Of a stretch of 64,000 bases of DNA, positions 20,518 through 24,454 are shown one piece after another (position 1 is the first letter of the stretch; each line of letters opens with the position of its first letter). Source of the stretch: Candidatus Obscuribacterales bacterium. Its GTDB lineage: Bacteria; Cyanobacteriota; Vampirovibrionia; Obscuribacterales; Obscuribacteraceae. Under the pieces are notes generated by a model. The model saw only the letters and a list, made by a program, of their open reading frames with translations, had not been told where the DNA came from and did not search any database. Location of the stretch: assembly GCA_965228855.1 (NCBI GenBank), contig CBDDIJ010000003.1, forward strand, positions 704,001-768,000. The letters run 5' to 3'. The position numbers were made by a program, and so were the translations under genes.

Positions 20518-20600
20518 AGGAGCAGACAGGAGTTGAACCTGTAACCCTTGCAGGCAGACGGTTTAGCAAACCGCTTCCTCGACCGTGTCGGACCTGCTCC
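20518..20600 (-). tRNA. tRNA-Ser(GCT)
   Basis: GGAGCAG/CTGCTCC acceptor, TTGCTAA loop, long V arm, GTTCAACTC. Confidence 0.85.
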
Positions 20601-20604
20601 AAAG

Positions 20605-20708
20605 TCGCATCGTCACCAGCCAATCACTAGTATTGAATCTGGTGCTTCTCAGGGAATGGTGACCATGCGGCGTCCGGTGAAGACGCCGCGGGCGAGCAGA
20701 CGATGCGA
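20605..20708 (-). ncRNA. Unassigned three-way-junction structured RNA
   Basis: 10-bp closing stem TCGCATCGTC/GACGATGCGA with internal GCGGCGTC/GACGCCGC and CCAG..CTGG hairpins. Confidence 0.5.
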
Positions 20709-20713
20709 GCTAC

Positions 20714-20822
20714 TCGCGGTCACCTATATGACGGAGTCTAAGCATTTCCAGCGCACAGGCGGAAGAGGTTTCCGCCTGACCGCGACAGGTTTGATACCAC
20801 AAATATAAATGCTGACTCGGTC
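20714..20822 (-). ncRNA. Unassigned pseudoknotted RNA
   Basis: Crossing helices 20807-20822/20730-20747 and 20779-20785/20714-20720, with nested hairpin 20756-20778. Confidence 0.5.
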
Positions 20823-20827
20823 TAAAA

Positions 20828-20902
20828 TGGCTGCACAGGCAGGGGTCGAACCTGCGACAAATCGGTTAACAGCCGATTGTTCTGCCGCTGAACTACTGTG
20901 CA
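20828..20902 (-). tRNA. tRNA-Asn(GTT)
   Basis: Cloverleaf, CTGTTAA loop, encoded CCA. Confidence 0.93.
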
Positions 20903-20905
20903 ATA

Positions 20906-20987
20906 AGGAAGCAGAGGGACTCGAACCCCCAAACCTTGACGGCCAACTGTTTTCAAGACAGCGTCCTCATCCAGCCGGGTTGCTTCC
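20906..20987 (-). tRNA. tRNA-Ser(TGA)
   Basis: GGAAGCA/TGCTTCC, CTTGAAA loop, V arm. Confidence 0.88.
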
Positions 20988-21046
20988 GAGTGATACCGAA
21001 AATGATTTCGGTATCGCCGATAGTGCTTGCGAGCACGCTCGACATA

Positions 21047-21119
21047 AGCCGTTGACAGGAGTTGAACCTGCAACCTACTGTTTACAAGACAGCAGCTCTA
21101 CCAATTGAGCCACAACGGC
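21047..21119 (-). tRNA. tRNA-Thr(TGT)
   Basis: Cloverleaf, CTTGTAA loop. Confidence 0.93.
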
Positions 21120-21120
21120 A

Positions 21121-21195
21121 TGGAACCGCATCCAGGATTCGAACCTGGGCGCAAAGGTTTAGAAAACCATCGCTCTTCCGCTGAGCTAATGCGGT
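21121..21195 (-). tRNA. tRNA-Arg(TCT)
   Basis: Cloverleaf, TTTCTAA loop, CCA. Confidence 0.9.
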
Positions 21196-21196
21196 A

Positions 21197-21290
21197 TGGT
21201 ACCAGTGGTAGGGCTCGAACCTACAACCTTGCGCTAATCGGGCGCTCAACCGAGTATAAATCGGCCGCTCTGCCATTGAGCTACACTGGT
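21197..21290 (-). tRNA. tRNA-Ile(TAT) with long variable arm
   Basis: ACCAGTG/CACTGGT, TTTATAC loop, GCGC..GCGC V arm, ACCA end. Confidence 0.85.
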
Positions 21291-21320
21291 TCGTTTGTGA
21301 ACTAATTTAAGTAGCGAAGA

Positions 21321-21392
21321 TGGAGGCAGTAGGAATCGAACCCACTTAATGCTGGTTAAAAGCCAGATGCATAGCCACTCTGCCATACCTCC
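21321..21392 (-). tRNA. tRNA-Lys(TTT)
   Basis: Cloverleaf, CTTTTAA loop. Confidence 0.88.
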
Positions 21393-21509
21393 TAGCGTTG
21401 ATTCTCATCGACGCTATGCGTTTTGAACTCATATTGGAACCTCCGATGATGGAGCATGACCGTTTTTCAACGACCATGCTCCGAGACGCAAACTTGTTTC
21501 CGAAGTAAT

Positions 21510-21584
21510 TGGGAGCACTGACGAGAATCGAACTCGCATTTGCGGAGTGAAAGTCCACCTTCCTAACCATTAGAAGACAGTGCC
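21510..21584 (-). tRNA. tRNA-Glu(TTC)
   Basis: Cloverleaf, CTTTCAC loop, CCA. Confidence 0.88.
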
Positions 21585-21615
21585 GTAGAACCGCTTTTGA
21601 AGCGGAGTTGTAATC

Positions 21616-21688
21616 AACCCTTGTCAGGACTTGAACCTGAACGCTACTGGATCGGAACCAGTTGCTCTTCCGTTTGAGCTACAAGGGC
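21616..21688 (-). tRNA. tRNA-Arg(CCG)
   Basis: Cloverleaf, TTCCGAT loop; body nearly identical to Arg(ACG) at 22568. Confidence 0.9.
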
Positions 21689-21689
21689 A

Positions 21690-21820
21690 TGGGCCGTACG
21701 AGTTGGAGATACGAGTTTTTTACATCCCCATGTAGCGGGGATGATTGGAGTTGAACCAATTAGATTTGTGTTGGAGACAAATGTTTTACCGTGTGTAAGT
21801 ATCTTCTGTTAGAGTACGGC
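21690..21820 (-). ncRNA. Scaffold RNA carrying a circularly permuted tRNA-Trp(CCA)-like domain
   Basis: GCCGTAC-TCTAACA...AACTC-GTACGGC scaffold enclosing an anticodon arm (CTCCAAC), a T arm, then the acceptor hairpin CATCCCC/GGGGATG. Confidence 0.75.
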
Positions 21821-21829
21821 GGAAATTTG

Positions 21830-21898
21830 TTCGTGCAAGTCGTTGATGCGAAGCTAAGCTCGTTCAAAGAGTGTATGCATCAACTGTCGGAGCACGAA
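21830..21898 (-). ncRNA. Minimal scaffold RNA
   Basis: TTCGTGC-TCCGACA-GTTGATGC...GCATCAAC-GACTT-GCACGAA. Confidence 0.7.
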
Positions 21899-21901
21899 AC
21901 A

Positions 21902-21988
21902 TGGTCGGCGGGGCACGGATTTGAACCTGCGAAGTCTTGAGACGCGTGGGTTACGGCCACGCTGCTTTGGCCACTTGCATACCCGCCG
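21902..21988 (-). tRNA. tRNA-Tyr(GTA) with C1-G72 pair
   Basis: CGGCGGG/CCCGCCG-ACCA, CCGTAAC loop, V arm, bulged T stem. Confidence 0.82.
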
Positions 21989-22061
21989 GTACTGTTTGCG
22001 TTCTGAATCGGGGCGATACCAGAGTGGTATCACCGTGATACCAGACTGGTGTCATCAATGA

Positions 22062-22132
22062 AGTCCCTTGCAGGAATTGCACCTGCATAAACTGATTTGC
22101 AGTCAGTCACCTTGCTATTCGGACAAAGGGAC
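22062..22132 (-). tRNA. tRNA-Cys(GCA)
   Basis: CTGCAAA loop, U73, atypical TGCAATT T loop. Confidence 0.85.
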
Positions 22133-22133
22133 G

Positions 22134-22207
22134 TGGAGCCTATCATCGGACTCGAACCGATACCCCTAGCATGGCTCGCTAGGATTCTGCCTTTATACTA
22201 GATAGGC
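22134..22207 (-). tRNA. tRNA-Gly(GCC), atypical anticodon loop
   Basis: GCCTATC/GATAGGC-TCCA; loop GAGCCAT (G32, A33). Confidence 0.8.
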
Positions 22208-22208
22208 G

Positions 22209-22283
22209 TGGTTGCCGCAGAAGGATTTGCACCTACACTTGCTCACTTATCGGGTGAGTACTCTGCTGTTAAGTTATGCGGCA
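22209..22283 (-). tRNA. tRNA-Ile(GAT), atypical
   Basis: CCGATAA loop (C33), TGCAAAT T loop, ACCA end. Confidence 0.8.
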
Positions 22284-22284
22284 C

Positions 22285-22369
22285 TGGTGGAGGCAGTAGG
22301 AATCGAACCCACGTTGGTTTTGAAACCTCTGGTTAAGAGCCAGGTGCATAGCCATTCTGCCATGCCTCC
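22285..22369 (-). tRNA. tRNA-Lys(CTT) with variable arm
   Basis: CTCTTAA loop; GGTTTCAAAACC V hairpin; paralog of Lys(TTT). Confidence 0.88.
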
Positions 22370-22371
22370 AG

Positions 22372-22522
22372 GACGAGCGACATCGAGAACGGTTTCATGT
22401 TGCACATAGAAACCTCATCGTGCAGTTAGTCAGCTCGTTTCTGTTCTTGCACCACAGATGGTTTCGTTCATAAGACAGTCCCTTAGAACCGTTTTTTGCG
22501 AACCACATCTGGTGCTCGATGT
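22372..22522 (-). ncRNA. Unassigned multi-stem, possibly pseudoknotted RNA
   Basis: ACATCGAG/CTCGATGT closing stem, long hairpin 22449-22515, hairpin 22391-22414, crossing helix 22433-22439/22372-22378. Confidence 0.5.
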
Positions 22523-22567
22523 TTTAGACGTCACCCGGCGCCTGATAGCGCCTGCGGTGCTCTTAAT

Positions 22568-22642
22568 TGGAACCCTTGTCAGGATTCGAACCTGAAGCCT
22601 ACTGGTTCGTAGCCAGTTGCTCTTCCTTTAAGCTACAAGGGC
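22568..22642 (-). tRNA. tRNA-Arg(ACG)
   Basis: Cloverleaf, CTACGAA loop, CCA. Confidence 0.92.
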
Positions 22643-22682
22643 GCATGCCTGCTTATGGTTATGACACCGCAAGTAGGCGGTC

Positions 22683-22900
22683 AACCGTGCAAGTTGAAGT
22701 TACGGATCATCGCGTTTTACCGTTGCTCGAAATCTAGCCCAGTCCGCACTTACGCGTTGTTTAAATGATGGCTGCTTAAAGCCTACATCCTGGGTTTCTG
22801 ACGACTCCTCACAATCTCATTGCCATTTGAAACGACGGTTGGCTTAGCCAACTAGCCTCCTCTCGTACTGCTTGTATGTATCTTGGGTTGGGGCACGGTC
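22683..22900 (-). ncRNA. Scaffold RNA carrying 23S rRNA sarcin-ricin loop and L11/GTPase-centre mimics
   Basis: AGTACGAGAGGA at 22869-22858; CCCAGGATGTAGGCTTTAAGCAGCCATCATTTAAACAACGCGTAAGTGCGGACTGGG at 22794-22738; closed by GACCGTGC/GCACGGTT. Confidence 0.85.
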
Positions 22901-22903
22901 GCT

Positions 22904-22973
22904 TGCTCACCATCGGAATCGAACCGATTTCTCCATCCGGCGAGATGGATTTCTGCCATTGAATTAGGCGAGC
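22904..22973 (-). tRNA. Degenerate tRNA (Gly-like body, 8-nt anticodon loop CTCGCCGG)
   Basis: Acceptor GCTCGCC/GGTGAGC, canonical T arm, irregular D and anticodon arms. Confidence 0.6.
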
Positions 22974-22977
22974 ACAT

Positions 22978-23110
22978 AAACCGTACGAGTCGCGCTTGCA
23001 GGTGGGGCTTTACATTTCGCAGCCGTGAATTCCAGTTCCGGCAAGACACCCACAGTTACGTTTGTTTATTTGTTTGTGGATTGTAAGCAATCGCTGTTGG
23101 AGTACGGTTT
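22978..23110 (-). ncRNA. Scaffold RNA with A/C-rich single strand and small junction domain
   Basis: AAACCGTAC-TCCAACA...GACTC-GTACGGTTT; internal CACAAACAAATAAACAAAC and GTGGG/CCCAC domain. Confidence 0.72.
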
Positions 23111-23114
23111 TATA

Positions 23115-23185
23115 TTGCCGCAGCAGGTCTTGCACCTGCACGTGTCGGTTTATTCAACAAACACTCTGCGTTGATTTACACGGCA
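23115..23185 (-). tRNA. Degenerate tRNA-Ile(AAT)-like
   Basis: TGCCGTG/TGCGGCA acceptor like Ile(GAT), mismatched anticodon stem, loop TGAATAA, TGCAAGA T loop. Confidence 0.55.
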
Positions 23186-23186
23186 T

Positions 23187-23261
23187 TGGTACCCGATGAA
23201 GGACTTGAACCTTCAACCCGCTCTTTGTAAGAGAGACGCTCTACCATTGAGCTAACCGGGT
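23187..23261 (-). tRNA. tRNA-Val(TAC)
   Basis: Cloverleaf, CTTACAA loop, ACCA end. Confidence 0.92.
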
Positions 23262-23262
23262 A

Positions 23263-23339
23263 TGGTGCTTAGGGTCGGGGTCGAACCAACAACGCGCAGG
23301 GCTTCAACCTGCCGCTCTACCACTTGGAGCTACCTAAGC
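23263..23339 (-). tRNA. tRNA-Phe(GAA)
   Basis: Cloverleaf, TTGAAGC loop, ACCA end. Confidence 0.92.
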
Positions 23340-23340
23340 A

Positions 23341-23417
23341 TGGTGCTTCTGGAAGGAGTCGAACCTTCAGACTTCTGTTTTTGAAACAGATGCATGTACC
23401 GATTCTGCTACAGAAGC
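23341..23417 (-). tRNA. tRNA-Leu(CAA), short variable loop
   Basis: TTCAAAA loop, A73, variable region only AGTCT. Confidence 0.88.
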
Positions 23418-23420
23418 ATG

Positions 23421-23540
23421 TGGCCGTACGAGTCGAGGTGCAGTGTAGTTCACGGAGGAATCGAACCTCCAACTTCTGATTAATAGTCAGATACTCTTAC
23501 CGTTTGAGTTAGTGTGTATGCACGTCTGTGTGAGTACGGC
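23421..23540 (-). ncRNA. Scaffold RNA carrying a tRNA-Asn(ATT)-like D/anticodon/T core
   Basis: GCCGTAC-TCACACA-GACGTGCA...TGCACCTC-GACTC-GTACGGC enclosing perfect D, anticodon (CTATTAA) and T arms. Confidence 0.78.
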
Positions 23541-23547
23541 GCAGTTA

Positions 23548-23620
23548 TGGAGACGATCGGAGTTGAACCGACAACCTTCTCGTTGCAGGCGAGGTGCTCT
23601 ACCAGTTGAGCTAAGTCCCC
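23548..23620 (-). tRNA. tRNA-Ala(TGC)
   Basis: G3-U70 pair, CCTGCAA loop (C33). Confidence 0.9.
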
Positions 23621-23624
23621 AGGT

Positions 23625-23728
23625 GGAGCCGATCTTGGCGTTTCGAGATTGCGATGAAGACCCTCCGAGTTTGCGCCGGCAATGCGCTCGATCTTCGCAG
23701 AGAAAAAATCGTCGAAACAATCGGCTCC
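23625..23728 (-). ncRNA. Unassigned rod-shaped RNA with pyrimidine-rich internal loop
   Basis: GGAGCCGAT/ATCGGCTCC, GTTTCGA/TCGAAAC, TTTTTTCTC bulge, apical hairpin. Confidence 0.5.
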
Positions 23729-23734
23729 TGGTAC

Positions 23735-23810
23735 TGGTCGCAGAGACCGGATTCGAACCGGTAATTTACAGGTTATGAGCCTGCCGTGTTAACCGTTACA
23801 CTACTCTGCT
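23735..23810 (-). tRNA. tRNA-Met(CAT) with A1xG72 mismatch
   Basis: CTCATAA loop, ACCA end; Met versus fMet versus Ile2 not resolved. Confidence 0.88.
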
Positions 23811-23823
23811 AAATTTGAACATT

Positions 23824-23897
23824 TGCTTCTGGAAGGATTCGAACCTTCAGACCTCCGGGTTTAAGTCGGATGCATGTGCCGATTCTGCTACAGAAGC
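23824..23897 (-). tRNA. tRNA-Leu(TAA), short variable loop
   Basis: CTTAAAC loop; paralog of Leu(CAA). Confidence 0.88.
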
Positions 23898-23898
23898 G

Positions 23899-23973
23899 TG
23901 GCGCATCCCCTAGGATTTGAACCCAGATCGAACGAGTTTGGAGCTCGTCATGTTGCCGTTACACCAGGGATAC
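23899..23973 (-). tRNA. tRNA-Trp(CCA)
   Basis: Cloverleaf, CTCCAAA loop, GCCA end. Confidence 0.92.
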
Positions 23974-24273: not shown

Positions 24274-24303
24274 AAAAAAGCCTGGGCTTTTCGACCCAGG
24301 CTT
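24274..24303 (-). terminator. Intrinsic terminator upstream of the tRNA array (attenuator)
   Basis: AAGCCTGGG-TCGAAAAG-CCCAGGC followed by TTTTTT on the minus strand. Confidence 0.8.
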
Positions 24304-24325
24304 GCGAATGAGAAACGACTCTACG

Positions 24326-24454
24326 TCAGATCACACCTGGGCTATATTTATTCGTCGCGCCTGCTGTCCACAGTTCGCGACCGAGTATCTCGGCCGGTTT
24401 CCCGACGGACATGCGATTCTCGCAACTTAAATGTCTATATGATCTAAACGACAT
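24326..24454 (-). CDS. Putative 42-aa leader peptide MSFRSYRHLSCENRMSVGKPAEILGRELWTAGATNKYSPGVI
   Basis: GGAG SD 9 nt upstream; last codons contain the antiterminator strand GCCCAGG; stop 22 nt before the terminator. Confidence 0.6.
   Translation of the reverse strand: MSFRSYRHLSCENRMSVGKPAEILGRELWTAGATNKYSPGVI

Follow-up and report, generated by a model that had tools for sequence, protein, structure and literature searches.

A D-loop-opened tRNA-like RNA in a handle family linked to a predicted Ro60-fold protein in Obscuribacterales

Results

A structured element within a tRNA array

The window, a 64,000-nucleotide stretch of a Candidatus Obscuribacterales genome, carries a tRNA gene array on its minus strand (20518..23973; 21 ARAGORN calls) that is likely one transcript, given the common strand and the spacing. 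Within the array, one base from a tRNA-Arg(CCG) gene, lies a 131-nt element (21820-21690, minus strand) that overlaps no ORF of at least 50 aa. A nearly identical element is present in records titled Ca. Obscuribacterales. The array also holds a normal tRNA-Trp gene at 23899-23973, so the element is not needed for decoding, as the first-pass annotation had argued.

All segments that the annotation listed were found on the minus strand, in the order half-D, anticodon, T, acceptor; the tRNA position numbers used here are those that we take to apply to its parts. The RNA begins with the 5' strand of an outer helix, P1 (21814..21820; pair probabilities 0.99-1.0, covariation), and continues with a conserved 7-nt internal-loop strand and the 5' strand of an inner helix, P2 (21799..21813), both recognized by a handle descriptor and the handle alignment. 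Immediately 3' of P2 is a conserved linker, HUACA (21791..21798), identified in an alignment of 125 handles and similar to the YUAY of YrlA. The 3' half of a D loop (G18-G19) and the 3' strand of a D stem follow (21782..21790), assigned from sequence and from homologues at loci L004, L005, and L089. Next come an anticodon-like arm (21765..21781) with the loop CUCCAAC and the anticodon CCA at 21774-21772, and a T arm (21744..21760); both arms are supported by the fold, by covariation, and by pair probabilities of 0.8-0.99 in their stems. The acceptor part (21721..21743) has a 7-bp stem (3' strand 21743-21737, 5' strand 21729-21723; pair probabilities 0.97-1.0) that covaries and is followed by U8-A9 (21722-21721). 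The end of the stem is sealed by a loop, as described earlier: G73 (21736) and a CUACAU linker (21735-21730) close it. The remainder (21690..21720), delimited by sequence and handle alignment, comprises an A-rich linker in place of the decayed D-stem 5' strand, the 3' strands of P2 and P1, and a CCA. The outer 7-bp stem (21820-21814/21699-21693) and the encoded CCA after it are both present as annotated. We reject this CCA as a functional end because it is not conserved (3/24 rows, two of them from this lineage).

The predicted fold (-34 kcal/mol, z -4.97) consists of a 7-bp helix, a 7x6 internal loop, and an inner helix around the tRNA-like part, and none of 200 shuffled sequences was equally stable. 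Outer and acceptor helices pair with probabilities of 0.97-1.0. Folding pairs the D-loop G19 with the HUACA linker in free RNA (p 0.87), so the elbow may need protein. Homologue covariation, one of the checks proposed with the first annotation, bears the structure out: among 13 D-loop-opened members selected for having an acceptor hairpin, 93.9% of cells are paired and 21 of 32 pairs are altered on both sides, a result reached by 0 of 500 shuffles (slid controls, 35-44% paired). In the acceptor stem 5 of 7 pairs covary in these members. With its segments all present, a stable fold, and helices that covary in homologues, the element is real.

A tRNA-like domain opened in the D loop

In the native segment order ARAGORN finds no tRNA in the element, and Rfam returns a partial tRNA match below threshold (18.4 bits, E 3.5). 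Once re-permuted, the element is called tRNA-Trp(CCA) by ARAGORN at the default threshold. With a tRNA HMM built from 39 genuine tRNAs of the genome, the re-permuted sequence scores 13.1 bits, versus 9.9 in native order and 5.2 for the best of 300 shuffles, so the proposed comparison with shuffled controls came out in favor of a permuted tRNA. Six real tRNAs of the array score 9.5-46 bits with the same HMM. The gain over native order is modest, and we therefore regard the window's copy as a weak tRNA. Specifically, it is degenerate: it lacks the 5' D-stem strand, has A at position 48, and carries G-CUA instead of CCA.

The homologues at L004, L005, and L089 retain U8-A9 and both D-stem strands, and score 30-39 bits when re-permuted (37-39 for L004 and L005, versus 13 for the window's copy). 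Because they keep both D-stem strands, the opening lies in the D loop; the handle is inserted there, and the window's copy has lost its 5' D strand. The annotated opening "at the D arm" thus stands as to the circularly permuted tRNA-like domain, and its position is corrected to the D loop. Re-ordering yields the cloverleaf expected of a permuted tRNA gene, with the D stem absent in the window's copy; inspection of the fold revealed no bulge-helix-bulge junction in the element.

One handle, many cargoes

Five array RNAs, including the element, share the same handle ends around different cargo. In the handle, a helix of 6-9 bp is separated by a conserved 7x5 internal loop from a second helix of 7-8 bp, which the HUACA linker follows. 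The annotation missed that the outer stems form such a handle; the scaffold that it named is not peculiar to this RNA, since the handle is common to the five array RNAs and tied to a divergent Ro60-fold protein (below). The four siblings, all on the minus strand and detected with the handle descriptor, are a minimal 67-nt RNA (21831..21897); an RNA whose cargo resembles parts of 23S rRNA (22685..22898), with a GTPase-centre mimic (Rfam LSU positions 1071-1170) and a portion that we take to be sarcin-ricin-loop-like; an RNA with a further structured cargo (22981..23107); and a tRNA mimic opened at the acceptor, with D, anticodon, and T arms (23424..23539; Rfam tRNA model positions 5-66). The rRNA mimic has homologues in L004, L005, L191, L302, L305, and L324. 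Arrays of the same genus also have the 22981-23107 sibling, in which a CAAA repeat varies in length.

A first exact pattern run over the genome contigs gave 118 stretches, nearly all of them chance: a full handle among several tRNAs occurred in only five, and the 113 others served as controls. The descriptor derived from the array copies matches the 8.2-Mb genome at seven places: the five array RNAs, C3:1378454, and a weak site at G000:C5:50002-50106. It has no match in the 113 unrelated control loci (478 kb). We collected 133 distinct handles, 125 of which have the modal geometry and were used for statistics. In these 125, the U, A, C, and A of HUACA and a C at +8 are invariant, the UAC core being imposed by the descriptor; three flanking pairs that are not imposed occur in 113, 109, and 81 handles (shuffle maxima 66, 71, and 56). 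Rfam, at gathering and E-value thresholds, has no family for the element or the handle. The GNCGAA Ro-binding motif is found in 2 of 133 handles and is absent from the element.

A heuristic sort of the cargo of the 133 handles, which contains a few run-through artefacts, gives 35 minimal, 24 D-loop-opened, 23 anticodon-opened (YrlA order), and 10 acceptor-opened RNAs, with 5 rRNA mimics, 6 T-only, and 30 other cargoes making up the remainder. For the D-loop-opened class, a relaxed scan returned 51 rows, and 40 were left after removal of 11 anticodon-opened RNAs. A 7-nt Y-U anticodon-type loop is present in 22 of the 40, with 12 different triplets (UAA 4, CCA 3, UUC 3, CAU 2, GAA 2, GUA 2, and six singletons), and several rows have a GNRA tetraloop instead. 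Same-genus homologues carry CAU, UUC, UAU, or AUU. An acceptor of 6-7 bp occurs in 23 of the 40 members and is lacking in 17. The sealed loops of the 23 acceptors read N-CCA (7), N-CUA (5, including the element), CCA straight after the stem (4), or other (7), so that CCA or CUA appears in 16 of 23. Variable triplets together with a CCA-like loop motif argue for selection on tRNA shape and on the sealed-loop motif, not on tryptophan. As judged from sequence, the CCA triplet is lineage-specific and not the conserved function.

Some members of the class depart from the common form. RNAs at L230:1499-1623, L231:1499-1622, and L172:533-664 have a sealed acceptor with G3-U70, A73, and CCA, which we take to be the alanine/tmRNA identity set. 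A subtype without the 7-bp acceptor (L243:1894-2010, L244:1817-1938, L246:2137-2258, L247:1843-1969, L234:1491-1617) consists of GGUA, an anticodon arm, a T arm, and a short hairpin, with CCA outside the hairpin. The cargo at L005:602-694 is collapsed.

A divergent Ro60-fold protein travels with the handle

The handle copy at C3:1378454 is 66 nt long and lies ~130 bases upstream of a gene for a 525-aa protein, which occupies G000:C3:1378651-1380222. This protein has no significant Pfam or NCBIfam match, the Pfam TROVE model (PF05731) does not recognize it, and TROVE finds no match in its own genome. A 62-sequence profile of the protein matches a phage TROVE (E 2e-4) and human RO60 (E 4e-4), and vWA_Ro60 was found in 24 of the 62 homologues. 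In a Foldseek search with the AlphaFold model (pLDDT 88), the best 11 among the matches listed were Ro60 or Rsr (TM 0.54-0.61, E 1e-10 to 8e-9), and alignments to 1yvp, 2nvo, and 9kop gave TM of about 0.6 over about 500 columns. The protein is predicted to adopt the full-length Ro60/Rsr fold, a helical ring closed by a vWA domain.

Handle and protein are linked well beyond this genome. At 17 of 20 loci from relatives a handle precedes the Ro-like gene on its strand, and in metagenomes 36 handle matches fall in 25 of 80 Ro-like loci, every one on the strand of the gene. Across 107 genomes of the order, which are kin and not independent samples, 31 have handle and protein, 2 the RNA only, 2 the protein only, and 72 neither (33 with the RNA pattern and 33 with the protein). 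The patchiness of the two matches even inside genera (g13, 5/8; g22, 4/6). In another phylum, sampled with 351 genomes around a Chloroflexota-titled record, the handle is present in 4 genomes, and all 4 have a Ro-like gene within about 2 kb. A Planctomycetota-centred sample gave a pattern match in 1 of 351 genomes; we consider it chance, as it does not fold as a handle and its genome lacks a Ro-like protein. In the element's own phylum, the Ro-like protein occurs in 33 of 301 genomes.

A strict handle search gave no convincing match at many Ro-like loci: 55 of the 80 from metagenomes, 18 of 31 from a mostly cyanobacterial set, and 14 of 15 viral ones. Short flanks and a variant handle are part of the explanation. 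On plasmid pA of Kovacikia minuta, a cultured strain (L324, NZ_CP083583.1), a 33-tRNA array, four handle RNAs, and a Ro-like gene share one locus. In the genome studied here, ~650 kb separate the array from the Ro-like gene, and the common handle is what links element and protein.

We scanned the neighborhood of the Ro-like gene in 18 handle-bearing metagenome loci (56 of 60 same-strand ORFs). Ten of the loci have a ThiF (E1-like) gene, three encode a separate vWA protein, and two have Tpt1; RNA ligase and JAB are each present at one locus, and RtcB is absent from the 56 ORFs. In 11 loci the Ro-like gene is accompanied by a recurrent nameless protein of about 300 aa. Here, a 317-aa protein and a ThiF gene lie together 11 kb from the Ro-like gene (G000:C3:1365681-1367281; L292:5682-7282). 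Elsewhere, in many bacteria and in a phage, the two are direct neighbors of the Ro-like gene, and JAB, vWA, kinase, Tpt1, or RNA ligase genes sometimes accompany them.

Discussion

Relationship to known RNAs

The element shares several features with YrlA and its partner Rsr/Ro60 (RF02553; PMC4201824; 10.1101/312249): a 5'/3' stem bearing a tRNA-like module, a loop-sealed acceptor, and, after the stem, a motif like the YUAY described for YrlA (PMC4201824). As in that system, the RNAs of the family have a Ro60-fold gene nearby on their own strand, and short hairpin RNAs occur alongside (cf. YrlB). The element has the broad form of a Y RNA (80-130 nt, a long 5'/3' stem with internal loop). A Y RNA is expected to share its strand with a Ro60 gene no more than about 4 kb away; the handle sibling here and same-class RNAs elsewhere fit this, and the element itself lies ~650 kb off.

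Other features set it apart from YrlA. In YrlA the T arm comes first, then the acceptor and the D arm, and the Ro stem takes the anticodon position; 23 of 133 handle relatives have this order, and the element does not, as the first reading had also noted. D-loop opening keeps the anticodon arm, and the handle differs from the Ro stem of YrlA in having no GNCGAA and in being conserved on both strands. The partner protein is missed by Pfam TROVE, and a single handle serves five or more types of cargo, rRNA mimics among them. The YrlA model (RF02553) has no match at the element (E<=10) or in the genome, and none at gathering score in 20 family loci; the YrlA signature GNCGAAN0-1G near the 5' end is absent from the element. 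Because the handle is common to five array RNAs and tied to a Ro60-fold protein, the element emerges as Y-RNA-like after all: on sequence grounds it is likely a variant of the Ro60/Y RNA kind that resembles Y RNAs in type and is not a YrlA.

Yrn1 of Deinococcus also has a T arm, a potential anticodon arm, and a Ro helix conserved on both strands (PMC4201824). In Yrn1, as described there, a stem-loop with a 6-nt loop sits between D and T arms at the anticodon position and the Ro helix is metazoan-like, whereas in the element the loop has 7 nt, the sealed 7-bp acceptor is a stem apart, and the handle is unrelated. The segment order and the linker-closed acceptor recall the type I permuted tRNA genes of Cyanidioschyzon merolae, with their D-loop junction at 20/21 (PMC3978253). 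Permuted tRNA genes proper are nuclear or archaeal, with bulge-helix-bulge junctions, and their products are ligated to give tRNAs that decode. In the element, by contrast, the junction is taken up by a conserved handle linked to a protein, and the anticodon drifts. Two-piece tmRNA, a permuted bacterial gene whose pieces stay unligated yet paired (PMC3978253), offers a model for the processed form predicted below, although the element has no tag reading frame and no tmRNA match. Its genomic setting resembles the long tRNA arrays of cyanobacteria, such as the trn operon of Anabaena, whose stress-induced spare tRNAs have been proposed as RNase sponges (PMC8421152). The main text of that paper contains no mention of Y RNA, TROVE, Ro60, or tRNA-like RNA.

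A proposed function and its alternatives

We propose that the element is a D-loop-opened tRNA mimic on a handle, probably bound by the Ro60-like protein as a Y-RNA-type decoy or adaptor in translation or RNA-damage stress (probability roughly 0.7). The mimic siblings, on a common stem that travels with a distant Ro60, make such a role likelier than a tryptophan-specific bait. The element would be co-transcribed with the spare-tRNA array, probably in translation stress if the Anabaena trn operon is a guide, and freed by processing of the flanking tRNAs. The Ro60-like ring would then bind the handle. We slightly favor a further step in which RNase P cuts before acceptor G1 and 3' trimming or CCA addition leaves a two-piece mimic held by the handle, in analogy to two-piece tmRNA and to YrlA of M. 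smegmatis, whose acceptor is opened by RNase P and receives CCA (PMC4201824). The element and its siblings would offer nucleases or tRNA-binding factors different faces of the tRNA and the ribosome, and such factors may be absorbed or brought to a repair complex. Each of the three permutations would free another face of the tRNA, and D-loop opening alone would leave the anticodon arm, T arm, and acceptor exposed together.

A more far-reaching version is tentative, and we hold it possible rather than probable. The Ro60 clade, widespread and uncatalogued in this view, may build a modular RNA toolkit on one handle that covers every tRNA face and the ribosome factor site; its D-loop member would be an RNase P-cut, CCA-ended two-piece tRNA with an anticodon that diversifies as an immune decoy against tRNA nucleases, the whole coupled to an E1-like/JAB module.

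An aminoacylated two-piece tRNA tethered to Ro60, charged after RNase P opening to serve as a donor of amino acids or a ligand of the ribosome, is unlikely. The 7-bp acceptor, the loop-encoded N-CCA of 7/23 homologues, the presumed alanine identity set in L230, L231, and L172, and the ThiF gene near the Ro-like gene in 10/18 loci would fit it, but acceptor identity varies, 17/40 members lack an acceptor of at least 6 bp, and the loop of the window's copy reads CUA. In addition, the bulk of the handle at the elbow would probably hinder EF-Tu and ribosome entry.

It is distinctly unlikely that the handle family is functional while the cargo of this copy is decaying or neutral filler. The lost D stem, the A-run linker, the low tRNA score, and the collapsed cargo at L005 in the same class point that way. 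However, although the element differs by about 28% from homologues in its genus, its three cargo helices are perfect, a sign that selection on structure has continued.

The first-pass annotation saw the RNA as bait for TrpRS or for a tRNA-Trp anticodon nuclease. Bait in a general sense remains plausible from the sequence; the tryptophan specificity is not supported, and an RNA that exists for those two partners is very unlikely. The case for it is the CCA in a tRNA-Trp-like CUCCAAC loop with G73, the ARAGORN call of the re-permuted element as tRNA-Trp, and a class member that follows a tRNA-Trp gene in two cyanobacterial loci. Yet both of those copies lack CCA, the 22 loops hold 12 triplets with CCA in only 3 (two from this lineage), same-genus homologues carry the other triplets given above, and still others have GNRA tetraloops. 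Fast anticodon turnover could mean that one nuclease is baited per lineage.

Similarly low odds attach to the idea that the handle is a processing or stability signal of the array transcript, or binds another protein such as that of about 300 aa, with the Ro60 link being operon hitch-hiking. The known Ro motif is absent, and the about-300-aa protein and ThiF are in the same operons. Against this, a minimal handle stands directly upstream of the Ro-like gene here, with the other two genes 11 kb off, and Ro-binding stems have the same stem/internal loop/stem geometry.

A true permuted tRNA gene of the algal type I kind, with the handle excised and the D loop ligated to make a decoding tRNA-Trp, is hardly credible: the junction region is as in C. 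merolae (PMC3978253), L004 and L005 re-permute to well-scoring tRNAs, and the genome has two RtcB genes (both away from the neighborhood of the Ro-like gene), but the same handle also bears empty hairpins as well as rRNA mimics, inspection shows no bulge-helix-bulge at the junction, a D stem is impossible in this copy, and the genome already has three normal tRNA-Trp genes.

If the Ro60-bound decoy or adaptor is the correct reading, bacterial stress tRNA arrays encode non-decoding RNAs. One handle with three circular permutations of tRNA and with rRNA mimics would be a natural cargo-swap experiment, separating protein binding from mimic function; the effector of the Y RNA tRNA-like module was called unknown by Wang (2018, 10.1101/312249). 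TROVE-based surveys would miss the system, because Pfam TROVE misses the protein clade and Rfam the RNAs. The main texts searched hold no description of the handle, the protein clade, or a D-loop-opened Y RNA, and an earlier mention of the clade is possible. The presence of the system in the cultured cyanobacterium Kovacikia minuta makes it testable.

Expression and other features of the array

Three metatranscriptome runs, of which small shares were used, cover the rRNA-mimic sibling, and the contig of one relative extends to the 5' part of the element. The assembled contigs show neither strand, ends, nor processing, and we therefore do not count them as support. A promoter scan gave results at chance level. 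ARAGORN found no tmRNA gene in the whole genome, where it may be divergent or unassembled. Upstream of the array (24278-24454, minus strand) are a short leader ORF and a terminator-like hairpin in an attenuator-like arrangement. Other non-tRNA spacers of the array look structured and have no descriptor match (22380-22520, 21395-21480, and 20620-20800, minus strand). A second small tRNA cluster (Gln, Gln, Leu, His, Asp; G000:C3:1529761-1530653, L128), with imperfect direct repeats nearby, is possibly a detached part of the array.
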